DNA of 46,701 nt from a virus (IMGVR_UViG_3300045988_115807), one strand, 5' to 3'; shown: positions 20,826 through 40,764, counted from the first letter of the stretch. Numbers and translations: made by a program. The notes: generated from the sequence alone by a model not told the origin.

Positions 20826-21160
20826 CAATACAAGAACATAAACAGAGAACATAAAAATAAAGTAATGACACAAACACAATAAAGAACATAAATAAAGAAT
20901 TAGAACCAATGCTAAATAAAGCAGTACACAAAATGAGAACATTACACCAAATGAGAACATTAATCAAGAACATAACGAAACATAATTCCCCATTATACGC
21001 GCGTATAATGGGGAATTATGTGCTGATTTTCAGAACAAAGTCAAGGAACAAATTTTAACGTTCCGATATTGTGTTTTTATTTATTATCCGTTATTGTGTT
21101 CTGTTAGTTTGTGGCTAAGTTAACGCGTTATTAGTTATCTTATTCTCAAATTGTGTTACG
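20826..21160. repeat. AT-rich tos-like region: AGAACA(T) direct repeats left of, and inverted TGTTCT/TTGTGTT repeats right of, the telomere palindrome
   Basis: CAAGAACATA, GAGAACATA, AAGAACATAAAT, GAGAACATTA (x2), CAAGAACATAACG on the left; CAGAACAAAG, TATTGTGTT (x2), TGTGTTCTG on the right. Confidence 0.6.
20980..21021. other. telRL-like telomere resolution site (42-bp perfect palindrome, telO core)
   Basis: ACATAATTCCCCATTATACGCGCGTATAATGGGGAATTATGT is perfectly self-complementary; centre between 21000 and 21001; central CCATTATACGCGCGTATAATGG matches my recollection of the N15 telO core; 171 bp upstream of telN. Confidence 0.85.
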
Positions 21161-21191: not shown

Positions 21192-23093
21192 ATGAGCAAA
21201 GTAAAAATCGGTGAATTAATAAACTCACTTGTTAGCGATGTTGAGTCAATAGATAACTCTGACCGTCCTCAAGGGGAGAAAACAAAAAAAATAAAGGCTG
21301 TTGCATTAAAATTTAAAAATGCATTATTTAATGACAAGCGAAAGTTTAGGGGGAAAGGATTAGAAAAAAGAATTACAGCCAACACATTCAATGCCTATAT
21401 GAGCAGGGCCAGAAAACGGTTTGATGATAAACTTCATCATAGCTTTGAAAAAAATATACATCGCCTATCTGAAAAGTATCCTTTATATAATGAGGAGCTA
21501 TTGTCATGGCTTTCTCTACCTGCTGCCGATATTCGCCAGAGAATGTCAGCTTTACAGGCAAAATTAAAATTAATTCTCCCTCTATCAGAAGATTTATCTA
21601 ATATCAGAATTGGCGATAACAAAAGTCATAATAAGTTATTGAAATTATCAAATAAATATAAAGAGTGGCAATTCGCCATTTCTGATTTAACTAGCGATAA
21701 CTGGAAAGATAAGCGCGATTATTTATATAAATTACTACAGCAAGGATCTGCCTTACTTGAGGAGTTGAATCAGCTAAAAGTTAACCATGAGATTCTCTAT
21801 CATCTTCAACTAAGCCCTGCCGAACGTGCATCTATCCAGCAACGATGGGCGGACGTTCTGCACAATAAGAAACGTAACGTGGTGGTCATTGATTACCCTA
21901 AATATATGCAAGCTATTTACGATATTATAAATAGCCCTGCTACATTAAATAATCTAAACACTCGTTCAGGTATGGCTCCTTTGGCATTTGCACTTGCTGC
22001 ATTGTCAGGAAGACGAATGATTGAGATTATGTATCAAGGTACATTTACTGTTTCTGGTAAGTATACCGTTGATTTTTTAGGCCAAGCTAAAAAAAGAACT
22101 TCTGATAATATAACCAGAAAAATATATACATTATGCGAAGCAAAAACATTTGTTTATTTAATAAATGTACTTCGCTCATGCCCAGCAGCATCTGATTTTG
22201 ATGATGTCGTTAAAGGTTATGGAGATAACGACACACGCTCTGAAAACGGACGTATTAATGCCATATTAGCAAAGGCTTTTAACCCGTGGGTTAAATCATT
22301 TTTTAAAGATGACCGCCGTGTTTATAAAGATAGTCGTGCTATTTATGCCCGTATTGCGTATGAAATGTTTTTCCGCGTAGATCCTCGTTGGAAAAACGTA
22401 GATGAAGATGTTTTCTTTATGGAAATTTTAGGCCATGACGATGAAAACACTCAATTACACTATAAGCAATTCAAGCTGGCCAACTTCTCAAAGACATGGA
22501 GGCCAAATACTGGAAACGAAAATACCAGGCTGGAAGCATTGCAGCAGCTTGATGACGAAATGCCTGGATTCGCCAGAGGAGATGCCGGGGTTCGTCTGCA
22601 TAACACAGTTAAGCAGCTGGTAGAGCAGGACCCCTCTATAAAAATCACGAACAGCACTCTAAGAGCGTTCAAATTTAGCCCAACAATGATTAGTCGATAC
22701 CTGGAATTTGCTGCTGATGCTCTGGGGCAATTTGTTGGCGAAAACGGACAATGGCAACTGAAAATAGATACTCCAGAAATCGTTATGCCTGACGAAGAAG
22801 AACTGGAAGCAATACCTGAACTGGCGGATGAATTATCAGAGGATGACGATCTGGATGACGACGAAATTGAGATAGAGGAAGAGGAAGAGGAAGAGGAAGA
22901 TAGCGTAGAAGAACAGCAACCGCCTGCACCTTCTTCGCCTGTATCTAAGCCGGTATTTAAGCCGGTGAGAAATATTGGTGATGGCTCATACGTTGTTGAG
23001 TTTCATTATAATGGCCAGAATTATGCGTGGTCCGGCAGTGCAAACAGCCCCATGTCAGCAATGCAGTTAGCATGGCTGACATATTTCGGTTAA
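21192..23093 (+). CDS. telN: protelomerase TelN (telomere resolvase)
   Basis: 633 aa; MSKVKIGELINSLVSDVESIDNSDRPQGEKTKKIKA...RSGMAPLAFALAALSGRRMIEIM...HDDENTQLHYKQFKLANF... matches N15 TelN from memory; acidic Glu/Asp-rich C-terminal stretch. Confidence 0.95.
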   Translation: MSKVKIGELINSLVSDVESIDNSDRPQGEKTKKIKAVALKFKNALFNDKRKFRGKGLEKRITANTFNAYMSRARKRFDDKLHHSFEKNIHRLSEKYPLYNEELLSWLSLPAADIRQRMSALQAKLKLILPLSEDLSNIRIGDNKSHNKLLKLSNKYKEWQFAISDLTSDNWKDKRDYLYKLLQQGSALLEELNQLKVNHEILYHLQLSPAERASIQQRWADVLHNKKRNVVVIDYPKYMQAIYDIINSPATLNNLNTRSGMAPLAFALAALSGRRMIEIMYQGTFTVSGKYTVDFLGQAKKRTSDNITRKIYTLCEAKTFVYLINVLRSCPAASDFDDVVKGYGDNDTRSENGRINAILAKAFNPWVKSFFKDDRRVYKDSRAIYARIAYEMFFRVDPRWKNVDEDVFFMEILGHDDENTQLHYKQFKLANFSKTWRPNTGNENTRLEALQQLDDEMPGFARGDAGVRLHNTVKQLVEQDPSIKITNSTLRAFKFSPTMISRYLEFAADALGQFVGENGQWQLKIDTPEIVMPDEEELEAIPELADELSEDDDLDDDEIEIEEEEEEEEDSVEEQQPPAPSSPVSKPVFKPVRNIGDGSYVVEFHYNGQNYAWSGSANSPMSAMQLAWLTYFG

Positions 23094-24737: not shown

Positions 24738-24769
24738 CCCCGTGACCAGTCACGGGGACAGGTGTTTTT
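24738..24769. terminator. hairpin between the antirepressor leader and the lipoprotein gene
   Basis: CCCCGTGACCAGTCACGGGG perfect 20-bp palindrome, followed on the plus strand by ACAGGTGTTTTTA. Confidence 0.35.
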
Positions 24770-24818
24770 ATAGTTTGCTTGAACAAACGATCAGAACATG
24801 AACAATGTTATTGTTCCG

Positions 24819-26449: not shown

Positions 26450-26641
26450 TTACTCCCCGTTCACCGAAAATTCACGATAGAAACGTTTCCACATACGATA
26501 AGTCTGCGCAAATTGTTCACCACGAAACATCGCCTTCCTGGCCTTCATGTTTTCCTTGTGAGACTTTCGGTCTATGAACCAAAACCATTGATGGAACACA
26601 CAAAGCAAGAGACACAAAGATAATATCCAATCATTACCCAT
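26450..26641 (-). CDS. small hydrophobic protein (63 aa) overlapping the repA stop
   Basis: Internal ATG of ORF 26450-26758 (MGNDWILSLCLLLCVFHQWFWF...), overlapping the repA 3' end by 8 nt. Confidence 0.35.
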   Translation of the reverse strand: MGNDWILSLCLLLCVFHQWFWFIDRKSHKENMKARKAMFRGEQFAQTYRMWKRFYREFSVNGE

Positions 26642-29600
26642 AGAAAGCGCCCTGCTCTTCGTAGCTGCATGAGCTATTCCCCGTAATGTATTCACGTAAC
26701 CGCCGCAGCTCATTGCTGGAAAGGTGATCCATGAACTCTGTGAGGTACAGGGATGCAAACGTCATAGCTATGCTGGCTGATGACCATGATGACATAGTGG
26801 CCAACTCCTCACTGGAAAGCGCACTCATCGCCCAGGACTCAGGTACAGCCACTGGCAACACGGCCAAAGCCTCAGAAATTACTGAATGAGGGGCGTTTTG
26901 AACCTGCTCGTTTGTGGATCGCGTTTTATCATCCATATATATATTGAGATCCAAATCGCGATCCATTTCGATGGCTGTCTTCTCGGCTTTACGCGTTTTT
27001 AGGGTTAGGCCATCTTTCTGACGCTGAACAAGAATATCCAGCATAAATGCCGCTGATTCAGGCTCAACAAAACGCAAGGTTGGACGCTTATCGCCGTCTC
27101 TGCCGCGACGTTTACCTGTTTTAAGGCCAAGAGAGTCGCAAATGTTTTTAAACAACGCTTCCGGCACTTTAGGCTTCCCTTTTGGCGTCATAAAACCACC
27201 AATGTGCAGAACGTTATTCAACAGGTCACGGCGTTCGGCTGTCATGAGGTTATCTCGAGCGAATTTGAGACGCTCCTGAGTCGCCTCGCCGGTCATAGTC
27301 TCAGGGTTGATACCGCAGTCGATAAAGTACTGCCGGAGAGTTGCTGATTTAAGCGCATAGAAACCGCGCGCCCCGACTTCAACAGTAGGAGTAGCTTTTA
27401 CCTTGTGATCGATTATTCCAGGGAATTTAGTTTTAAAGACATCATCAGCCTGCTCGCGAGTCATCGCGGTCACTACAAAATATTGCCACTGTCCCGCCTG
27501 ACGGTATGTGTAGGTAAAATTGATGGCTGCTTCTTCCCGGTCGTAACGACGAGCTGTTACCTCATCTAAAAGCATTGTTTCATAGCGGCGAACTTTGTCT
27601 CGAGCACCATCGAAATAGAATTTCAGCGTGCCTTCTTCAACCGGTAGTTTCAGTTCGTTTTCAATATCCCAGCGGACAAGTTTTGCCTGTTCTTCAAGCG
27701 TCAGCGCGCGTTTTTTTAGCAGTTCTTCACGCTCTGATTCTTGTGGTGTTTCTGTATTGAGGTGCAGATCCAGTGTCTGTTCCCACACAATATCCCGCGC
27801 TTCTTTACGCAGATCTTTACCGATATCATTCGCAGCATAATCGGTGGCCAGCGGTGATACCTTATAACCGTCGCTGTGCATGATGCAGATCATGTTGCTG
27901 GCGTAGTCGTTACGCGCAGTCGCTTCAATTGCGGCTGCTTTAATTTTCATCCTGGTAAAGTCGGTATTGGCCACCCCCATTGATATACGGTCGCCATCGA
28001 AAACGACATCCGTAAGTTCACCGTTCATACCTGCGGTAGCAAGCAATGCCTGGGCGAATGCTCGTTCTATTTTTTGCGGGTCAGTTTCACGTTTTGCACG
28101 AGCTTTATCAAAGCCGATAATAAATTCTTTTGCTGTACGGTCGCGGCGTAGCATTTGCACTGCATCACTGGGTACAACTTCACCACAGAACATGCCGAAA
28201 TGACGGTCAAAATGTTTTTGCTCAATCGACACGCCGGATGAAATAGACGGGCTATAAATCAGGCCGTCGTATTTTTTGACCATCTTTTTCGGTTGATTGG
28301 TAAATGCTTCAACTTCTGGCTCTGGTTTGTTTTTCTGGTTTACACACAGAAATTTCTTACCAGGAAAATGCATTCTCAGGGTGGCTGTCACATCTTCTGC
28401 AAAGGTGGAGCTGTCGGTGGCCAACATGATTTTTTCGCCATCCGATACAGCTTTCACCACCTCGGTCATGATGCGATCTTTTTCTGTATAAAAAACCCGG
28501 ATTGGCTCACCTGTTTCGCGGTTGCGAACATCAACAGGTAATTCAATTACGTGGATCTGCAGCCATGCCGGTAAACCTAGTTCTTCACGGCGTTTCATAG
28601 CCAGTTCAGCCAGGTCAACCAGCAGATCGTTCGCATCAGCATCCACCATGATTGGGTGTTGTTCCGTTCTGGCCAGCGCGTCAATTAGCGTATTGAATAC
28701 AGCCACCGGGTTTTCCATAGCCCGACCGGAAAGAACGGCACGTAGCCCTTGTGTGGCCTCGTCAAAGCCAAAATAGTCGTGCTGGCGCATCAACGGTTGC
28801 CAGCAGTTTTTAACAATCGAGTTTATGCAGATGGTCAGTTTACTGGCGTATGGAGCCATTTCCTGATAGCCAGGGTCCTGATAGTGCAGGATATCGGTTT
28901 TTACACCTTTTCCTTCTGTCATCATTTCCCACAGGCCACCAATAAGGGAAACACGGTGAGCAACAGAGATACCACGTTCTGAGCTATGCATTAAAGGTCG
29001 TAACAATCCAGTAGATTTGCCGGAACCCATACCAGCACGAACGATGACTATCCCCTGTAGTGATTGCACATACTTCAGGACGTCATCGGTCATTACCGAA
29101 GTTTCAAAACGCTTATAGGTGATATGTTGAGGACGTTTATTGGGATCAGTTATGCGTTCGCTGAATGAGCGCGGAGCCTGGGCAATACGGCACTTTTTAT
29201 TCAGGCGACGGGCAATGTGGTCTTTTACCGTAGCGCGATAGATATTTTCCAGCCCCATTTCACGCAGAACGATGCAGAACATGTTAAATAAGTCTGACGG
29301 ACTGTTAGGAACCGGACAGGTTAGCATGCCAATATCCACCGCTCTCAGCAGCTCTTTGGCAAAAGTACGACGGTTATCCCGCTTAATTGTCTTCAGGCGG
29401 TTGAGCGTCAGAGATAGCAAATCAGTGCCGGTTTTCAGGCGGTTTGCAGTTGCAAACAGTTGACGTGCTGTTTCACGAAGTCCACGCAGTTTGTGCAGGT
29501 CGTTGAAGTCACTGCACTCCATTTGCGGATCGTCTTCAAAAGTTGGATAGACGCAGCGGACATCGTTGAATTTCGATAAGATTTCATAGCCAGTCCGCAG

Positions 29601-30629
29601 GCCGGTATTCCCTTTTCCTTCTGTGGCTGATTTCCGGTCATTATCCAGTGCGCAGGTGATTTTTGCCGCCGGGTACATGTTTACCAGTTGTTCCACAACA
29701 TGAACCATGTTATTAGCGGATACAGCGACAACCACAGCGTCAAAGCGTTTATCTTTTTTCGTGGCAAGCCAGATGGATGCACCAGTAGCAAAACCTTCTG
29801 TAACAGCGATGTTTTGCGCCCCTTTTAGCTCACCGATAACAAAGCAGGCACCGACGAAATCGCCGCTGGTTACGGCGCTGGTCTGGTATTTTCCACCTTG
29901 TTTGTCGATTCGCTGCCAACCCACAATACGACCATCGTAACGACCGTCCAGGTGAGCCAGAGGGATAGCCATATACGTGGTTGGCCCCCTGCTCCATTTT
30001 GCGCTGTCGTGACTGGTCACGCGACGCACATCACACGAATTAAAAACGTCACGAATACCTTTTTTAATCGCATATGGCCATGAGCCGTCTTCTGCAGGAG
30101 CATGTTCCCACGCGCTGTGGAATGCCAGCCATCCCAGCAAACGTTCATGGTCCATTTGGTTGTTTTTCAGGTCATTAATTCGTTTTTGTTCTTCACGGCG
30201 ACGACGTGCTTCGGCCTGACGTTCTATTCTTGCCCGTTCTTCTTCCGGTTGTGCGACCACGGTCGCATTATTCCGTTGTTGCTCACGGCGATATTCAGAA
30301 AACAGGAAGGAGAAACCGCTCCATGAGCCAGCATCGCTGCCTTTATGGACGAAGTTAATGAACGGGTAATCAATCCCTTTGCTGTGTTCCAGCCGGGAGT
30401 AAATTTCTACGCGTCCTTTGAGGCTCTTTTCGAGAGCTTCTGGAGATGTTTTATTGTATGAAGAGTAACGCTCAACACCCCCGCGAGGGTTGAGTTGGAT
30501 GTTGTCGGAACAGGCAGACCAGTTGATACCAGCCATCTGTGCCAGCTCGGTTAGTTCATCCCGTGCTGCTTCAATTAGCGAGAACGGATCGCTGCCAAAG
30601 CGATCCGCATAGAAATCGTTTAATGTCAT
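26634..30629 (-). CDS. repA: replication protein RepA (primase-helicase, N15 RepA-like)
   Basis: 1331-aa ORF; contains Walker-A-like GMGSGKST; size and position next to cB match N15 repA, whose 3' part is reported to contain the replication origin. Confidence 0.9.
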   Translation of the reverse strand: MTLNDFYADRFGSDPFSLIEAARDELTELAQMAGINWSACSDNIQLNPRGGVERYSSYNKTSPEALEKSLKGRVEIYSRLEHSKGIDYPFINFVHKGSDAGSWSGFSFLFSEYRREQQRNNATVVAQPEEERARIERQAEARRRREEQKRINDLKNNQMDHERLLGWLAFHSAWEHAPAEDGSWPYAIKKGIRDVFNSCDVRRVTSHDSAKWSRGPTTYMAIPLAHLDGRYDGRIVGWQRIDKQGGKYQTSAVTSGDFVGACFVIGELKGAQNIAVTEGFATGASIWLATKKDKRFDAVVVAVSANNMVHVVEQLVNMYPAAKITCALDNDRKSATEGKGNTGLRTGYEILSKFNDVRCVYPTFEDDPQMECSDFNDLHKLRGLRETARQLFATANRLKTGTDLLSLTLNRLKTIKRDNRRTFAKELLRAVDIGMLTCPVPNSPSDLFNMFCIVLREMGLENIYRATVKDHIARRLNKKCRIAQAPRSFSERITDPNKRPQHITYKRFETSVMTDDVLKYVQSLQGIVIVRAGMGSGKSTGLLRPLMHSSERGISVAHRVSLIGGLWEMMTEGKGVKTDILHYQDPGYQEMAPYASKLTICINSIVKNCWQPLMRQHDYFGFDEATQGLRAVLSGRAMENPVAVFNTLIDALARTEQHPIMVDADANDLLVDLAELAMKRREELGLPAWLQIHVIELPVDVRNRETGEPIRVFYTEKDRIMTEVVKAVSDGEKIMLATDSSTFAEDVTATLRMHFPGKKFLCVNQKNKPEPEVEAFTNQPKKMVKKYDGLIYSPSISSGVSIEQKHFDRHFGMFCGEVVPSDAVQMLRRDRTAKEFIIGFDKARAKRETDPQKIERAFAQALLATAGMNGELTDVVFDGDRISMGVANTDFTRMKIKAAAIEATARNDYASNMICIMHSDGYKVSPLATDYAANDIGKDLRKEARDIVWEQTLDLHLNTETPQESEREELLKKRALTLEEQAKLVRWDIENELKLPVEEGTLKFYFDGARDKVRRYETMLLDEVTARRYDREEAAINFTYTYRQAGQWQYFVVTAMTREQADDVFKTKFPGIIDHKVKATPTVEVGARGFYALKSATLRQYFIDCGINPETMTGEATQERLKFARDNLMTAERRDLLNNVLHIGGFMTPKGKPKVPEALFKNICDSLGLKTGKRRGRDGDKRPTLRFVEPESAAFMLDILVQRQKDGLTLKTRKAEKTAIEMDRDLDLNIYMDDKTRSTNEQVQNAPHSVISEALAVLPVAVPESWAMSALSSEELATMSSWSSASIAMTFASLYLTEFMDHLSSNELRRLREYITGNSSCSYEEQGAFYG
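30250..30266. repeat. sopC-like centromere palindrome (copy within the repA 5' region, 17/18 match)
   Basis: GTGCGACCACGGTCGCA(T); same dyad as the other four copies. Confidence 0.55.
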
Positions 30630-30780: not shown

Positions 30781-30874
30781 CGTCTTTTTTCTGCTGCTGT
30801 AACCTGAGTCAACCCACAGAACATATGCTCTGCATTAAACCAGATTTACAGCAAACAATAAACCCCGTATTAAG

Positions 30875-31493: not shown

Positions 31494-31535
31494 TTATAGC
31501 TGGCTATAAAATTTATTTATTATAGCTGGCTTTAA
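31494..31535. promoter_or_regulatory. candidate CB operators in the cB-cro divergent promoter region
   Basis: TTATAGCTGGCTATAA (31494-31509) and TTATAGCTGGCTTTAA (31520-31535), 26 bp apart; a TATAAT at 31551-31556 lies 6 nt before the second cro ATG. Confidence 0.5.
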
Positions 31536-31784
31536 ATGAGATTTATTGCTTATAATAACCGCATGAAACCAGAAGAACTTATTCGCCACTTTGGCAGTGT
31601 AGAAAAAGCAGCGGCTGGGGTAGGTGTAACACCCGGTGCTGTTTACCAATGGTTAACCGCTGGAGAGATTCCTTCATTGCGGCAAAGTGATATTGAAGTT
31701 CGTACTGCTTACAAGCTGAAGAGTGACTTTACAACTCGGCGGGTAAAGCAGTCGATTAAGGAGAGCCGTAAGCGTGGAGCTTGA
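31536..31784 (+). CDS. cro: Cro-like HTH regulator
   Basis: Small HTH protein (…GSVEKAAAGVGVTPGAVYQWL…) divergent from cB; true start may be the ATG at 31563 (MKPEEL). Confidence 0.7.
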   Translation: MRFIAYNNRMKPEELIRHFGSVEKAAAGVGVTPGAVYQWLTAGEIPSLRQSDIEVRTAYKLKSDFTTRRVKQSIKESRKRGA

Positions 31785-32484
31785 GTATATACGCAGCTGC
31801 GTATCCACGGCATTGGCTGATATTCATTATCGCCAGCGTGGCATCCTAGAGGTCCAGCTTGAGCAGATGCGTCTAGGCAGATCAGGACGCTTTAACAATA
31901 AACCAGTCCGGTCAATCAGTGTAGGTGATGATAACTCATACGAAGTGTCCGTTCCTGCTGAGCCGGTTAGATTCCACCAGGGGAAAACATTTAAACAATC
32001 ATCAATGTTGCTCACTGATATTGATTTTCAGAGCGCCAGCTGGCGCAGGGCTATTGGTCAGTTGAATAACGAGGAATCAGCCTGGCTTTATTATTGCTAC
32101 GGATGCAAGCCTGATTACAACAATGATGTGATTGTTTGTCAGTGGTTATGGCTTGATTTTCTGGTTGCTCATTCGGGGGGCGGCTTTAAAAAAATGAAGG
32201 CCTCCACGAAAAAAGCCATGCGGAAATTGATTTATTACGCGGCACAGCAGGTTAAATCAGAACTTACGTGTGCTGAGGCAGTTGATGAGAGAGAACAGGA
32301 CAGGCATCTGAGTTTTCTACTGAATATATCTATTGATAGCTGGAGACAAGATTATAAAGAACGCTGGCTTTTAATTAAGTCGCGATGTCTGAGCTTAAAT
32401 CGAACTGCATTATTAAATGCGGCGGAGAAGCGCAGTGAAATCATCAAACGCCATCGGGCAGGAAGTGCCATTCTGCCTTTGTAA
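31774..32484 (+). CDS. putative late-gene antiterminator (Q-like)
   Basis: 236-aa ORF immediately after cro, as in N15 (cB-cro-Q); Cys-containing YYCYGCKPD segment; assignment is by position, not strong sequence recall. Confidence 0.4.
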   Translation: MELEYIRSCVSTALADIHYRQRGILEVQLEQMRLGRSGRFNNKPVRSISVGDDNSYEVSVPAEPVRFHQGKTFKQSSMLLTDIDFQSASWRRAIGQLNNEESAWLYYCYGCKPDYNNDVIVCQWLWLDFLVAHSGGGFKKMKASTKKAMRKLIYYAAQQVKSELTCAEAVDEREQDRHLSFLLNISIDSWRQDYKERWLLIKSRCLSLNRTALLNAAEKRSEIIKRHRAGSAILPL

Positions 32485-32494
32485 ACAAGTTATG

Positions 32495-32737
32495 TTCAGG
32501 AAACCGTCGAAGCCAGAATTAAGGTATTCGGGGGTAAGAAATGAATATGTTATCTGGTGTCCAACTTGTGGTTACAGGACACGACCAGATAGTAATAAGC
32601 AGTCTGTAATTGCCGATTGGTATTTATCAAATCAGCCAGGTAATAAGCATATAGAAAATCTTTGGATTAAGCGTTACTTGGAAATCAGAGAGGGTGCGAC
32701 CGTGGTCGCACAAGAAAATGAAAATAACGCCATTTAA
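32495..32737 (+). CDS. small hypothetical protein with zinc-ribbon-like motif
   Basis: MFRKPSKPELRYSGVRNEYVIWCPTCGYRTRPDS...; internal start of ORF 32417-32737; no clear RBS. Confidence 0.3.
   Translation, partial: FRKPSKPELRYSGVRNEYVIWCPTCGYRTRPDSNKQSVIADWYLSNQPGNKHIENLWIKRYLEIREGATVVAQENENNAI
32694..32711. repeat. sopC-like centromere palindrome
   Basis: GTGCGACCGTGGTCGCAC: 8-bp inverted arms with a 2-bp spacer. Confidence 0.65.
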
Positions 32738-32921
32738 GCAGGGGCCGATGACGCATGATGAAGCAGAGCGTCTTTCAGATACTTATCGGCGGCGTGGTAA
32801 GAAAGTTCTGGTTGTTCGTTCTGATTTTTTAGGTGATGGATATTGCGTTTATGTTCATTTACCTGAATCAGAAAGAACGCCAAAACCATCCAGAACATAT
32901 CAACAGAAAATTTGGGTATAG
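32718..32921 (+). CDS. small hypothetical protein (68 aa)
   Basis: MKITPFKQGPMTHDEAERLSDTYRRRGKKVLVVRSDFLGDGYCVYVHLPE...; weak translation signals. Confidence 0.3.
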   Translation: MKITPFKQGPMTHDEAERLSDTYRRRGKKVLVVRSDFLGDGYCVYVHLPESERTPKPSRTYQQKIWV

Positions 32922-32944
32922 ATAAACGTTGAGGAGAATTATTC

Positions 32945-33544
32945 GTGACTAATCAGATTATTTACGACAGGAAACGGTCTGATGTAATGATTGACCTTGA
33001 AACAATGGGTACTAACACATGTGCTCCAATTGTTTCTATCGGGGCAGTGTTTTTTTCTCCAGAAAGTGAGGAATTAGGTCCTACTTTTTATGTACCAGTG
33101 AATCTCAGAAGCTCGATGTTGAATGGTGGTGTCGCCGATGGTGATACCATTTTATGGTGGTTGAAACAGAGCAAGGAAGCCAGAGCCGCAATTTGTACTA
33201 ATGATGCCCTTGATATTAAGGATGCACTTTTTGAATTATCACACTTTATTACTTGCCATGCATGTAATTTAAAAAAATTGAAAGTATGGGGAAATGGAGC
33301 AACGTTCGATAATGTAATTTTACGCGGTGCTTATGAGCGCGTTGGCTTAGCCTGTCCGTGGGAATATTTTAATGATCAGGATGTTCGAACAATCGTTAAC
33401 CTTGGTCAGTTTATTGGTTTTAATCCTAAAAAAGATATGCCATTTGATGGCGAACGACACAATGCCCTGGCTGATGCTATTCATCAGGCTAAATATGTAT
33501 CAGCAATTTTCTCCCGTCTTGTAAAAGGGCAAGGAGAATCGTAA
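32945..33544 (+). CDS. 3'-5' exonuclease, DEDDh (DnaQ/RNase T-like) family
   Basis: GTG start with GAGGAG RBS; motifs MIDLETMG (Exo I), WGNGATFD (Exo II), HNALADA (Exo III). Confidence 0.8.
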   Translation: MTNQIIYDRKRSDVMIDLETMGTNTCAPIVSIGAVFFSPESEELGPTFYVPVNLRSSMLNGGVADGDTILWWLKQSKEARAAICTNDALDIKDALFELSHFITCHACNLKKLKVWGNGATFDNVILRGAYERVGLACPWEYFNDQDVRTIVNLGQFIGFNPKKDMPFDGERHNALADAIHQAKYVSAIFSRLVKGQGES

Positions 33545-33963
33545 TGGCAAAGGCTTTTACACCAGAACAGAGGGAAGAACTGAATAAACAAATTGTGGAA
33601 CTCGTGCGCCTGAATGGACGAGGAACGGTTAGGCAACTTGCGGATGAAACTGGTATTAGCCGGTGTGCTGTTAGTCGTTTATCAAGAGAGCTTGCTGCCA
33701 GTGGTGATTTGTATATCTCTGGCTCCGGGATATTTCTGTCTGCACAAGCACGCAAGGACTGGCAAAACGCCCGTAAAAAACTATCAAGAGTAAAGCCGAA
33801 GACATCGGTAGTGGTTGATCCAGACCTTATCTGGTCATTACCTGACGGAGAAATACGTCGTTACGACAGGCGCTTGAACATGATTTGTCACGATTGCCGG
33901 AAAAGTGAAGTTATGCAGCGTGTGCTGGCTTTTTATCAGGGAAATTTTCAGGAGGTGGCGTAG
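33544..33963 (+). CDS. hypothetical DNA-binding protein (winged-helix-like)
   Basis: ATG overlaps the upstream stop; ...RGTVRQLADETGISRCAVSRLSRELAASGDLY... HTH-like segment. Confidence 0.55.
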   Translation: MAKAFTPEQREELNKQIVELVRLNGRGTVRQLADETGISRCAVSRLSRELAASGDLYISGSGIFLSAQARKDWQNARKKLSRVKPKTSVVVDPDLIWSLPDGEIRRYDRRLNMICHDCRKSEVMQRVLAFYQGNFQEVA

Positions 33964-34253
33964 TGAATATCGACACCACGATAACGATCGATACGGCCAT
34001 AAATATCGGTCTGGCACTTCTCGGTTGGTTTTACATCATGTTCAGTGCGGGGAAGTGGGCGGCCTCTGTTTTTCTAAAGCAGTGGGGAAAGCACCGCAAA
34101 CAGGAAAGACGCCAGAAAGTGTTAGAGGCGTTCTATGACGCATTTGAACTTAGCCGCATTGAGCCAGGCACAACAGCCAAGATAGCGACAAAAGGCGACC
34201 TGATGATAGTGATGTTCCGACAGGAGAGAGCAGAGAAAGGGGAATCAGCATGA
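33963..34253 (+). CDS. small membrane protein
   Basis: GTG start; hydrophobic N-terminus INIGLALLGWFYIMF. Confidence 0.45.
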   Translation: MNIDTTITIDTAINIGLALLGWFYIMFSAGKWAASVFLKQWGKHRKQERRQKVLEAFYDAFELSRIEPGTTAKIATKGDLMIVMFRQERAEKGESA

Positions 34254-34828
34254 AATTTTCCAAATTTTCTGAGTTGGTGAATCGTATTTTGTCCAACAAC
34301 CACAGCCATCGTCGCGATATGGATGTAACAATCGTTATTCATTCGCCTGGCAGCATTGGTTCAACACCTTCAGTTGAGGTTCAGTCAATTCACGCTGGTT
34401 TTGATTGGGATTCCGGGAAAGTGCTTATTTTCCCATCACAGCCACTGACCACGCTAACACCAGAACAGATTACTGATATCACTGATAGTGTGCGCAAAGG
34501 TCAGTCCTGGCACGCATATCAGGAATACAAAAAGCATAAAGAGCAGTTGGAAAAATTGTCTATTGAGCTGGAAGCTGCAAGAAAGCGAATTTCAGAACAG
34601 GGAAATAAAGTAATACCAGTGTCAGCTGAATTGCCACCTGCAAATGAAAGTGTTCTGTTATTTGATGCTAACGGAGAAGGCTGGCTGATTGGCTGGCGTT
34701 CTCTCTGGTACACCTGGGGACAAAAGGAAACCGGAGAATGGCAGTGGACATTTCAGGTCGGGGATCTTGAAAACGTCAATATCACTCATTGGGCAGTAAT
34801 GCCGAAAGCACCGGAGGCTGGAGCATAA
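34250..34828 (+). CDS. hypothetical protein with DUF551-like Trp-rich C-terminus
   Basis: C-terminal ...GEGWLIGWRSLWYTWGQKETGEWQWTFQVGDLENVNITHWAVMPKAPE resembles the DUF551 hallmark ending. Confidence 0.6.
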   Translation: MKFSKFSELVNRILSNNHSHRRDMDVTIVIHSPGSIGSTPSVEVQSIHAGFDWDSGKVLIFPSQPLTTLTPEQITDITDSVRKGQSWHAYQEYKKHKEQLEKLSIELEAARKRISEQGNKVIPVSAELPPANESVLLFDANGEGWLIGWRSLWYTWGQKETGEWQWTFQVGDLENVNITHWAVMPKAPEAGA

Positions 34829-35385
34829 TGATCACGTTTACCGACAAAGAACTGATTAAAGAAATCAAAGAGCGAATCGGTAGCCTGGACGTTCGAGACA
34901 ATATTGAGCGCCGTGCTTATGAAATTGCACTGGCATCGCTGGAAGCAGATCCAGTTGCTTATATTTTCAAACATCCGGCTGGAAAATTATTCTGGGCTTT
35001 AACGGATGAAAGCAATAAAGAGCAATCGGACGTTATTCCTGTTTATGCCGCCCCTCCAGTGCCAGTAGTACCTGAAGAAAAACCAATGCCTAACCCTCTT
35101 AAAATGTACGCGGTTGATGCTGTTGCCGCTATTGCAGAGGTGAGAGGCTGGAACGCCTGTCGTGCCGCTATGCTTCAGAGTCAAGGTAATTGCATTAAGG
35201 ATGGTTGGATAAGCTGTAGTGAGCAAATGCCAGATGATGGTCGTATTCAGTTTTCTGTTTCACTTCCAGCAGCATGTGGTGGAGATAAATATTTTATTGA
35301 TGGTGTATTTCAACCTTTGAGATATGAGCGTGACTGTGAAAAAGCGGTTGTGGCCGCTGGCGGTGTAGTTAATTGGGTTAAGTAA
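34828..35385 (+). CDS. hypothetical protein (185 aa)
   Basis: ATG overlapping the previous stop (TAATG); start of ORF 34789-35385 moved to the first ATG. Confidence 0.55.
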   Translation: MITFTDKELIKEIKERIGSLDVRDNIERRAYEIALASLEADPVAYIFKHPAGKLFWALTDESNKEQSDVIPVYAAPPVPVVPEEKPMPNPLKMYAVDAVAAIAEVRGWNACRAAMLQSQGNCIKDGWISCSEQMPDDGRIQFSVSLPAACGGDKYFIDGVFQPLRYERDCEKAVVAAGGVVNWVK

Positions 35386-35400
35386 TTTTTAGGAGGATTT

Positions 35401-35727
35401 ATGGCGCTGACACCGGCAGAACGGCAAAGAAGACGCAGGGAACGGTTGAAGAAGGAAGGAACATCAAGACGTGACTGGATTCTGGAACCTGACGAGTTAC
35501 GTATGTTGGGGGAAATTTGTGTATTGCGTAGACCAGGGCGAGTTCCATATTCAGAGAACGAAGTCATCGGACTGCTGATCAGGAAAAACTATAAGGAGTT
35601 GCAGAAACAGCTATCTACTACTTGTCCGCGATGTGGTCAAAAAATGCCTGTTTCAGAATGCATTTTTGATGGTGAAGGCTCATGCCACCTTACAACCACG
35701 AGGCTGAAACTTGCGCTCAAAGTGTGA
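35401..35727 (+). CDS. hypothetical protein with basic N-terminus and CxxC motif
   Basis: GGAGGA RBS; MALTPAERQRRRRERLKKEG...CPRCGQ... Confidence 0.55.
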   Translation: MALTPAERQRRRRERLKKEGTSRRDWILEPDELRMLGEICVLRRPGRVPYSENEVIGLLIRKNYKELQKQLSTTCPRCGQKMPVSECIFDGEGSCHLTTTRLKLALKV

Positions 35728-35745
35728 CTGGTCACGGAGGGATAA

Positions 35746-35901
35746 ATGGACAAAAAGGCATTGCTTTTTGAAATGATACGAAAACGGAGCGAAAAGAGCT
35801 TTTCTGATGGTGGTGATGGGCTTTTGAAAGTGGTTGGGCGAGGCGTAGGAAGGGAACATAAGTATCAGACTACAAAGATATTTAACCAGTTAATCCATTG
35901 A
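35746..35901 (+). CDS. small ORF (51 aa)
   Basis: GGAGGG RBS 6 nt upstream; MDKKALLFEMIRKRSEKSFSDGGDG...; below ORF-track cutoff. Confidence 0.3.
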   Translation: MDKKALLFEMIRKRSEKSFSDGGDGLLKVVGRGVGREHKYQTTKIFNQLIH

Positions 35902-35927
35902 AAGTTGGCTATAAAATTTGAGTTTTA

Positions 35928-35947
35928 CCCTGTAATTTTATACAGTA
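35928..35947. promoter_or_regulatory. LexA (SOS) box
   Basis: CCCTGTAATTTTATACAGTA fits the CTGT-N8-ACAG consensus (taCTGTatatatatACAGta), with an AT-rich spacer and flanking TA. Confidence 0.65.
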
Positions 35948-35969
35948 TCAAATAACCTTTTTTAATTAA

Positions 35970-36188
35970 ATGGTATTAGATTCAATGACTGAAGCACCTG
36001 TATCAACTCTTGAAGAACTCGGATCAAACCTAAAAGACATCGACGCCGTTTTGGATCTGGTTAGCGTTGCTCTGGCTTCTCCAGAAGCCAGCTTGCATCT
36101 TGGCGAGATTTCACGACTTGTTAGTATGTCGCGGGAGATTGCTCAGAATTGCCAACAAGTTATTGCTGTTGAGTGTTTGCATCATTGA
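35970..36188 (+). CDS. small protein downstream of the LexA box; candidate SOS-inducible antirepressor (AntC-like by position)
   Basis: 72-aa acidic ORF; the promoter region upstream carries the LexA box and a TTGGCTATAAAATTT half-site also present in the cB-cro operator. Confidence 0.45.
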   Translation: MVLDSMTEAPVSTLEELGSNLKDIDAVLDLVSVALASPEASLHLGEISRLVSMSREIAQNCQQVIAVECLHH

Positions 36189-36231
36189 TACACACCCCGC
36201 CCTTCTGGACGGGGTAGCGAAAAGGGTCTAA

Positions 36232-36519
36232 TCAATAGACGGCATTAATATTAATCGTTGCACCGCATGCTTGGGCATATTTTGATAAAGTTTTCATGCT
36301 TGCCCCTAAAGGATTGCTTTCCAGGCGGCTGATAGCTGACGGGCGCAATCCCATTCGTTCAGCCAGAGCTGACTTCGTTAAACCTGCTCTTTCCCTCATT
36401 TCGTATAACATTTCGACCATCTCCAGCTCTTTATCGGCCTCTTCATATCCTTTGATGGCTTCTGGAGTGTTGAGAAGTTTTTCTTTTACTTCGTTAAACG
36501 GGATGCCTTTCGCTTTCAT
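36232..36519 (-). CDS. HTH (XRE-family) antitoxin, HigA-like
   Basis: ...RERAGLTKSALAERMGLRPSAISRLESN... HTH; start overlaps the toxin stop by 1 nt (TGATG). Confidence 0.7.
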   Translation of the reverse strand: MKAKGIPFNEVKEKLLNTPEAIKGYEEADKELEMVEMLYEMRERAGLTKSALAERMGLRPSAISRLESNPLGASMKTLSKYAQACGATININAVY

Positions 36520-36830
36520 CAGTTCATCTCCTTCAGGCGAGTTCTGGCGATTTCGATAGCCTTCACCGGTGTTTTCTGTGTCTTTTTTACAAATGCATGC
36601 AATAGATAAATTTCGTTACCAGTCGCGTAGGCGTACAGCGTTCTTGCGATGTTTTTATCCCCTACTCGTAGTTCAAAAAGCCCTCCACCTATTACACGGC
36701 TATGGGGCATCTTCAGTTTGTTGCCTTCCTTCTCCAGTCGCTCAATTAATCTGGTCATGCGACCTCGCAAATCATCTGGTAGTTCAAGCAGTTCATCCAG
36801 TGCTGCAGGGTGGGTTATCACGTTAAACAT
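36519..36830 (-). CDS. RelE/ParE-superfamily toxin, HigB/Gp49-like
   Basis: 103 aa; toxin-first operon order with a downstream HTH antitoxin, typical of HigBA / Gp49-like modules. Confidence 0.7.
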   Translation of the reverse strand: MFNVITHPAALDELLELPDDLRGRMTRLIERLEKEGNKLKMPHSRVIGGGLFELRVGDKNIARTLYAYATGNEIYLLHAFVKKTQKTPVKAIEIARTRLKEMN

Positions 36831-37463: not shown

Positions 37464-37481
37464 GTGCGACCACGGTCGCAC
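37464..37481. repeat. sopC-like centromere palindrome
   Basis: GTGCGACCACGGTCGCAC (extends to CTGTGCGACCACGGTCGCACAG). Confidence 0.65.
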
Positions 37482-40503: not shown

Positions 40504-40521
40504 GTGCGACCGTGGTCGCAC
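40504..40521. repeat. sopC-like centromere palindrome
   Basis: GTGCGACCGTGGTCGCAC. Confidence 0.65.
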
Positions 40522-40722: not shown

Positions 40723-40740
40723 CGTGCGACCGTGGTCGCA
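40723..40740. repeat. sopC-like centromere palindrome
   Basis: GTGCGACCGTGGTCGCAC. Confidence 0.65.
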
Positions 40741-40764
40741 CGGTATCTTTGTCAGGAGGTTTTG

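Follow-up and report, generated by a model that had tools for sequence, protein, structure and literature searches.

Does the repressor of a linear phage-plasmid help to hold down the gene whose product acts against it? This question is raised by a 46,701-nucleotide stretch of viral DNA, IMGVR_UViG_3300045988_115807 (hereafter the window, meaning the whole stretch analysed), in which a 14-nucleotide word, TGGCTATAAAATTT, from the operator region that separates cB, the gene of the prophage repressor, from cro is found again just upstream of the LexA box of a small open reading frame (ORF). This ORF is presumed to be a homologue of N15 antC, encoding a LexA-controlled antirepressor of the repressor CB. 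An earlier note on this DNA took the recurrence to suggest that the small ORF is under dual control by CB and LexA. Comparison of the window with related elements indicates that LexA control is well supported, by homology and by conservation, and that the sharing of the 14-mer is most likely a lineage-specific coincidence that does not attest a second layer of control.

In the circuit that we propose, the standard one of N15 and phiKO2, CB would occupy the three OR operators of the cB-cro spacer as well as two OL operators before repA, and antC would be transcribed from a weak sigma-70 promoter (TTGAGT, 17 nt, TACAGT) with the LexA box over its -10 region. By homology to N15, DNA damage would lead to the cleavage of LexA, the production of AntC, and the inactivation of a non-cleavable CB. 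The 14-mer would lie outside this circuit, in a fast-evolving stretch of 21 nt between an upstream stop codon and the -35 hexamer, where two G-to-A transitions in the lineage of the window would have created a perfect right half of the operator OR3 and an A/T-rich flank; with one good and one poor half-site, CB would be expected to bind there weakly or not at all. Coincidence within an unconstrained A/T-rich spacer, compatible with a small effect on promoter strength, is the probable explanation of the 14-mer beside the antC promoter.

The shared word and the candidate repressor site

The word TGGCTATAAAATTT occurs exactly twice in the window, once within OR3 and its flank and once upstream of antC. 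The features concerned are as follows:

31494-31509, no strand: OR3, TTATAGCTGGCTATAA, a dyad of 7 + 2 + 7 bases, identical to OR3 of N15 and phiKO2 and invariant in all 30 of the 30 related loci with the spacer read
31501-31514, plus strand: first copy of the 14-mer, comprising the central TG and right half-site (GCTATAA) of OR3 and five flank bases (AATTT)
35899-35914, no strand: operator-like 16-mer, TGAAAGTTGGCTATAA, 13 of 16 bases as in OR3, its right half perfect and its left half (TGAAAGT) degenerate
35906-35919, plus strand: second copy of the 14-mer, its last two bases being the first two of the inferred -35 hexamer

The earlier note placed the second copy at about 35903-35916; the recurrence is real but lies 3 nt further on. 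The second copy does stand just 5' of the LexA box, CTGTAATTTTATACAG, which follows it after a gap of 10 nt.

Alternatively, CB could bind TGAAAGTTGGCTATAA, centred about 46.5 bp upstream of the predicted transcription start, and lower antC expression together with LexA, in a double-negative loop that would sharpen or delay SOS induction. We consider such a lineage-specific weak operator unlikely. As far as its sequence allows it to be judged, the candidate lacks four of the five features looked for in a CB operator; on the fifth, a pair of recognisable half-sites, it is equivocal, with a right half that scores well and a left half that scores poorly.

The first of the four is the base pattern. 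Within its HTH_3 match, the CB of the window has the residues GVQNLERGDVMPSLEIG exactly as in N15 and phiKO2, so that the binding rules published for those two should hold for it as well. All five N15/phiKO2 operators share T-A-N10-T-A and are bound by CB, the minimal target of which is 18 bp, with the outermost bases determining specificity (PMC4997575, PMC4488713). In TGAAAGTTGGCTATAA, positions 2-3 read G-A and positions 14-15 T-A, whereas all 18 reference half-sites read T-A; the invariant T is missing from the left half, where the G is fixed by the TGA stop codon of the upstream ORF. Isolated OR3 halves are not bound by CB (PMC4997575), which also counts against a site with a single good half.

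The second and third features concern position. The candidate overlaps neither promoter hexamer, since 3 bp separate its downstream end from the inferred -35 hexamer and its centre falls at about -46.5 from the predicted start site. No neighbouring operator with which it might cooperate lies at 23-26 bp, and no other above-background site is present in the 80 bp upstream of the LexA box. The fourth feature is conservation: the site is absent from elements with the same CB, from N15-type elements, and from phiKO2, as described below. A repressor that blocked its own antirepressor would, moreover, oppose SOS induction. With four features missing, and the site lacking where the same repressor is found, the proposal of CB control through the shared half-site is not upheld.

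Distribution among related elements

We compared the antC regions of 30 IMG/VR loci, one Pseudocitrobacter genome, one E. albertii contig, 8 metagenome contigs, N15, and phiKO2; an AntC alignment search of genome contigs gave one locus, and a word-indexed protein search gave close AntC relatives only. The 14-mer is carried by the lineage of the window (AntC 94-100% identical), and the candidate site is found in that lineage only, where it is invariant in 16 sequences except for one change toward OR3 (locus L038). In a sister lineage of 11 loci (L013-L020, L034, L036, and L039), the homologous position reads TGAAAATTGACCGTAAAGTTTGAGT and scores 4.5 bits with the weight matrix described below; the counterpart words of this region are TGACCGTAAAGTTT and TGAAAATTGACCGTAAAG. 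Those sister loci that carry cB-cro on the same contig have CB 99.5-100% identical, Cro identical, and OR3 with its flank, TTATAGCTGGCTATAAAATTT, identical. An E. albertii element in which the gene 47 homologue is deleted (CB 99% identical, OR3 and its flank identical) has unrelated sequence at the position, scoring 0.6, and N15-type elements, whose CB is about 78% identical, as is that of phiKO2, score at most 6.1 there. The OR3 of phiKO2 carries the same 14-mer, and upstream of phiKO2 antC there is a different inverted repeat and no site of the TTA...TAA type.

Plasmids gave the same picture. Among 5,426 complete E. coli genomes, the antC promoter was found on 16 plasmids, 6 of them at 96% identity or more to the window and 10 at 87-89%; the 14-mer is present in the one plasmid fetched from the former set and absent from both of those fetched from the latter. 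Plasmids pAH01-1 (with the word) and pG749_3 (without it) encode the same CB protein, WP_001495876.1, and the CB of p13TMH22-2, which is without the 14-mer, is identical to that of the window. Since elements with the same CB are without the site, the circuit works without it.

The region is not conserved evenly. Among the three lineages with this CB, no base varies in the 32 nt that run from the -35 hexamer through the LexA box; in the 21 nt upstream of the -35 hexamer, the window and the sister lineage differ at 5 positions, about the same rate as in the flanking gene. The ancestral word, judged from the N15-type outgroup, was approximately TGGCTGTAAAGTTT, which already shared about 12 of the 14 bases, so that two G-to-A transitions led to the exact match.

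In the E. albertii element without the gene 47 homologue (L033; JAWJKF010000023.1, 5891-5935), the gene 46 stop codon and a palindrome, GTGACTGGTCAC, are joined almost directly to the antC -35 hexamer. From this junction, nothing upstream of about -40 is needed for retention of the module.

Another reading concerns promoter strength. The sequence ATAAAAT just 5' of the -35 hexamer could tune it as an UP-element-like contact for the alpha subunit of RNA polymerase, with the likeness to the OR3 flank a by-product of A/T selection or drift and CB uninvolved. Proximal UP subsites lie at about -38 to -46, the interval in which both derived changes raise the A/T content, and with hexamers that are weak, upstream contacts could matter. 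Other lineages are without a comparable A-tract at this position, and the match to the UP consensus is partial. We give this idea little weight, and it is no true alternative, being compatible with coincidence in the spacer.

Short-patch recombination or gene conversion, in which OR3 and its flank were copied without function onto partly similar sequence upstream of antC, seems to us very improbable. It would account for an identity that extends 5 nt past the operator into flank unneeded for operator function, and that reaches 17 nt in L038, and the bases already shared by the ancestral sequence would have offered microhomology. Tracts of 14-17 nt are, however, far below usual conversion lengths, the flanks are identical at chance level (8 of 16 positions upstream and 4 of 12 downstream), and two point transitions are simpler. 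A duplicated segment was rejected on the same flank figures.

Is the shared word more than chance?

The excess of the shared word over chance is weak. Repeated 14-mers are common: 90 are present in the window, of which about a dozen form isolated pairs without evident meaning, against 13-32 (about 20) when the window is simulated with an order-3 Markov model. For at least one 14-mer of the 91-bp cB-cro spacer to be found again elsewhere in the window, the probability is 0.018-0.048, according to the Markov order. In a scan of IMG/VR for TGGCTATAAAATTT, among the at least 119 matches listed, 110 were in unrelated context, 8 were in OR3, and 1 was at an antC promoter. The earlier note held that an equal frequency of the 14-mer in unrelated AT-rich DNA would tell against its proposal; the presence of the word in at least 110 unrelated viral contigs leans that way, as a count of matches and not a per-base frequency.

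Observations in favour of a possible weak operator

Several observations weigh against a reading of mere coincidence. At 0.02-0.05, the nominal probability is not a large one, and the second copy adjoins the promoter of antC, the only gene with a product that targets CB. The candidate has a perfect right half and centre, and its match to OR3 includes a further base that is not part of the 14-mer, the apparently derived G at 35904. In L038 (OARM01000140.1), which is otherwise 98.9% identical to the window in the antC segment, the T of the window at 35905 is replaced by C, giving the sequence AGCTGGCTATAAAATTT (variant word TGAAAGCTGGCTATAA), with 17 nt of identity to OR3 and an operator match of 14 of 16; both of these changes shift the site toward OR3. 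The chance that a substitution within the site improves the match is about 0.06-0.09, which is suggestive, not significant, and post hoc. Finally, the binding specificity of phiKO2 CB is rather low, and CB forms tetramers and perhaps octamers that would permit looping (PMC4997575).

The scores of a half-site position weight matrix (PWM), built from nine N15 and window operators (18 half-sites), also bear on this question. TGAAAGTTGGCTATAA scores 13.8 bits in total (10.5 for the right half and 3.3 for the left) and ranks 6-8 in the window, level with matches at 23090, 24768, 34987, and 19198, of which those at 23090, 34987, and 19198 lie in coding sequence. It also counts in favour of the candidate that it outscores the window's own OL2 (9.9-11.1 bits) and that it equals a conserved match at 24768 in the immA leader, possibly a real CB site. 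Because the matrix fails to separate the candidate from weak operators or from coding matches, its score is not the deciding argument.

The immA-leader match, TTATAGTTTGCTTGAA (24768-24783), stands in the intergenic leader of an immA-like antirepressor operon. Its N15 counterpart, TTATAGTTTGCTTTAC, is found in the same place and fits T-A-N10-T-A. This match could represent a sixth operator for CB, placed at the immA promoter, and possibly a genuine solitary site, in which case solitary sites of this strength would be possible in principle, a further point in favour of the antC candidate. A CB-sensitive upstream promoter of immA was reportedly described by Ravin in 1999; nothing usable on the CB sensitivity of the immA promoter Pa was found in the literature.

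The CB switch and its operators

The window is an N15-type linear phage-plasmid, an assignment made because this stretch is 97% identical to Escherichia phages PhiR46_1 and YDC107_1, the immB region is about 75% identical to those of N15 and phiKO2, and the gene order is the same. ORFs and Pfam matches give the N15 order of repA, cB, cro, Q, early genes, gene 46 and 47 homologues, the small ORF, and a toxin-antitoxin pair. Besides OR3, the immunity region comprises the following:

26634-30629, minus strand: repA, from its ORF, Pfam, and the N15 order
30823-30838, no strand: OL2 homologue, ATATGCTCTGCATTAA, between cB and repA, syntenic with the N15 protein_bind feature at 34056-34094; PWM 9.9-11.1 bits
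30846-30861, no strand: OL1 homologue, TTACAGCAAACAATAA, syntenic with N15 TTATAGTCAGCAATAA; PWM 14.9-17.8 bits
30875-31471, minus strand: cB, prophage repressor of 198 aa, with HTH_3 and a degenerate S24-like C-terminal domain
31520-31535, no strand: OR2, TTATAGCTGGCTTTAA; N15 counterpart TTATACCTAGCTTTAA
31543-31558, no strand: OR1, TTATTGCTTATAATAA, overlapping a TATAAT hexamer 5' of cro; in N15, the annotated protein_bind feature ends with its counterpart, TTATTGATTATAATAA
31563-31784, plus strand: cro, 73 aa, Pfam P22_Cro (1.7e-22), its start aligned with that of N15 gene 39
31774-32484, plus strand: Q-like antiterminator, Pfam Phage_antiter_Q (2e-84)

The two cB-cro dyads described earlier, TTATAGCTGGCTATAA and TTATAGCTGGCTTTAA, are both present, and their identification as CB operators within a repressor switch of the N15 type is confirmed by the identity of OR3, to which the binding of both CB and Cro has been reported (PMC4997575). 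OR1 and the two OL sites had been overlooked. The N15 record annotates CB-binding features at 34729-34793 and 34056-34094, which we read as three OR and two OL 16-mers, and OR3, OR2, OR1, OL1, and OL2 of the window correspond to the operators of N15 and phiKO2 in both sequence and syntenic position. Centre to centre, OR3 and OR2 are 26 bp apart, OR2 and OR1 23 bp, and OL2 and OL1 23 bp. These operator and gene assignments are correct and were already known from N15 and phiKO2.

The CB of the window is 78% identical to that of N15 and matches HTH_3 at 3.4e-11; its match to Peptidase_S24, at 21.3 bits, is below the 23.3-bit cut-off. The Ser/Lys dyad is lost in the CB proteins of N15 and phiKO2 (PMC4997575), and the N15 repressor has been shown to be non-proteolytic (PMC10432266).

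Five copies of a palindrome built on GCGACCACGGTCGC (full form, GTGCGACCACGGTCGCAC) are spread along the right arm of the element, at 30251-30268, 32694-32711, 37464-37481, 40504-40521, and 40724-40741, one of them within the studied range, after Q. Because the phiKO2 record has a "putative plasmid partitioning site" at syntenic positions, these copies probably represent the sopC-like centromere sites that are dispersed in plasmids of the N15 type. At about 20981-21021, upstream of an ORF of 633 aa (21192-23093), a long and perfect palindrome, ACATAATTCCCCATTATACGCGCGTATAATGGGGAATTATGT, corresponds to the telRL protelomerase target of N15-type elements.

The antC gene, its promoter, and the LexA box

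The features downstream of the early genes are these:

35746-35901, plus strand: short gene homologous to N15 gene 47; the operator-like 16-mer opens with the three bases of its stop codon, TGA (35899-35901)
35918-35923, plus strand: inferred -35 hexamer of the antC promoter (PantC), TTGAGT, from conservation and a 17-nt spacing to TACAGT; N15 has TTGCGG
35930-35945, no strand: LexA box, CTGTAATTTTATACAG, with the 20-mer at 35928-35947 matching 15 of 20 positions of the consensus TACTGTATATATATACAGTA
35941-35946, plus strand: inferred -10 hexamer, TACAGT, from alignment with N15, overlapped by the LexA box
35986-36188, plus strand: antC homologue, 67 aa, 54% identical to an unannotated N15 ORF at the same position; no Pfam family
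36232-36830, minus strand: convergent toxin-antitoxin pair, with an HTH antitoxin (36232-36519) and a Gp49/RelE-like toxin (36519-36830), the synteny anchor corresponding to N15 genes 48 and 49

The earlier claim that the small ORF is under LexA control agrees well with these features: the LexA box is conserved, and the encoded protein has a homologue in the same position in N15. The unannotated N15 ORF sits between genes 47 and 48 and is itself preceded by a LexA box, CTGTGTTTATATACAG. CTGTAATTTTATACAG is the sole A/T-rich CTGT-N8-ACAG in the window, and this motif is kept in all of the related loci except phiKO2, where ATGT gives one mismatch. With the promoter positioned as inferred, the box covers the -10 hexamer and part of the spacer.

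We equate the ORF with antC because of its synteny and its LexA box; the coordinates and promoter of N15 antC are putative and read from the sequence. Two papers, which cite Mardanov and Ravin (2007), describe N15 induction as being started by antC, the product of which acts against CB, and AntC as LexA-controlled (PMC4488713, PMC3121763). The second ATG (35986) is preferred as the start of antC, since in the sister lineage the frame opened by the first is closed two codons later (ATG GTA TGA).

A consensus promoter scan of 35700-36300 with a threshold of 9 of 12 matches found none; the antC hexamers match the consensus at 8 of 12 positions, and because the scan was empty the promoter is placed from conservation only. 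Two other candidates were rejected. TATAAA (35910-35915), considered as the -10 hexamer of a second promoter, has no acceptable -35 hexamer 16-18 nt upstream, and its TG is one base off the extended -10 register. A leftward promoter with TAGCCA as its -35 hexamer, for which the OR3 side offers TAGCCA, 17 nt, and TATGAT in front of cB, reads TGGTTA at the corresponding -10 position of the antC copy.

Two further observations concern the surroundings of the promoter. Directly before the antC start, at 35970-35985, the sequence ATGGTAT.AGATT.AATG is conserved from N15 to the window and is non-coding in the sister lineage (L013-L020), where it has an in-frame TGA; no clear Shine-Dalgarno sequence was seen before the start codon. 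These conserved nucleotides may be a leader feature affecting translation. A 12-bp palindrome, GTGAC(C/T)(A/G)GTCAC, occurs three times, in the immA-like leader (24742-24753), in repA (30009-30020), and at the junction of genes 46 and 47 (35724-35735), some 190 bp 5' of the antC promoter. N15 retains the first and the third of these, and the palindrome may be a binding site for another regulator.

Implications

As the evidence stands, the region offers a clean further example of the N15 circuit, with five operators and a LexA-gated antC. The comparison also shows where the antC promoter is constrained, namely, from the -35 hexamer through the LexA box, and that the stretch holding the 14-mer is not.

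There is a small chance that point mutations in one sub-lineage have recently made a weak CB operator at the antC promoter, which the L038 variant is perhaps improving. If so, CB and the SOS-controlled antirepressor would repress each other, and the threshold or kinetics of induction would be unlike those of sister elements in which an identical repressor comes without the site. The result would be a natural repressor-antirepressor toggle with built-in controls, the sister plasmids that have the same repressor and no site, and a modest, tidy system in which to study the evolution of SOS induction thresholds.

Comparison with known systems

The switch of the window resembles the immB switch of N15 and phiKO2, with its 16-bp operators OR1-3 and OL1-2 (Lobocka 1996; Hammerl 2015, 2016: PMC4488713, PMC4997575), in its order of repA, OL, cB, OR, cro, and Q. 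The operators stand in the same positions, with OR3 identical and the other four (OR2, OR1, OL1, and OL2) closely similar; the CB residues GVQNLERGDVMPSLEIG are likewise identical, and the C-terminal domain is a weak, sub-threshold S24-like match, as in those phages. The systems differ in that CB of the window is only 78% identical overall to that of N15 and in that its OR2 is a near copy of its own OR3, with one base different. The flank of OR3 is AAATTT in the window and in phiKO2 and TTTTT in N15.

The antC modules are likewise comparable. In N15, as in the window, a small ORF (54% amino-acid identity) lies between the gene 47 homologue and a convergent RelE/HTH pair, with a CTGT-N8-ACAG box equally far from the start codon, a -35 hexamer, a 17-nt spacer, and TACAGT. 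What lies upstream of the -35 hexamer is unconserved between the two, and the likeness to an OR3 half-site is found only in the lineage of the window.

Precedent for one promoter under both a phage repressor and LexA is given by PrstA of CTX-phi, which is reportedly regulated jointly by RstR and host LexA (Quinones 2005; Kimsey and Waldor 2009). Demonstrated and conserved sites for both proteins are said to be present at that early-operon promoter, whereas in the window the LexA box is the sole conserved site, and it is an antirepressor gene that would be controlled.

Antirepressor modules controlled by LexA only are known from 186 (Tum) and the Gifsy phages (GfoA and GftA) (PMC3121763). Their proteins are unrelated to AntC, and in none of these systems has an operator of its own repressor been reported at the promoter of the antirepressor gene. 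In them, as presumably in the window, LexA directly controls a small antirepressor gene that lies away from the immunity region, and the repressor is non-cleavable.

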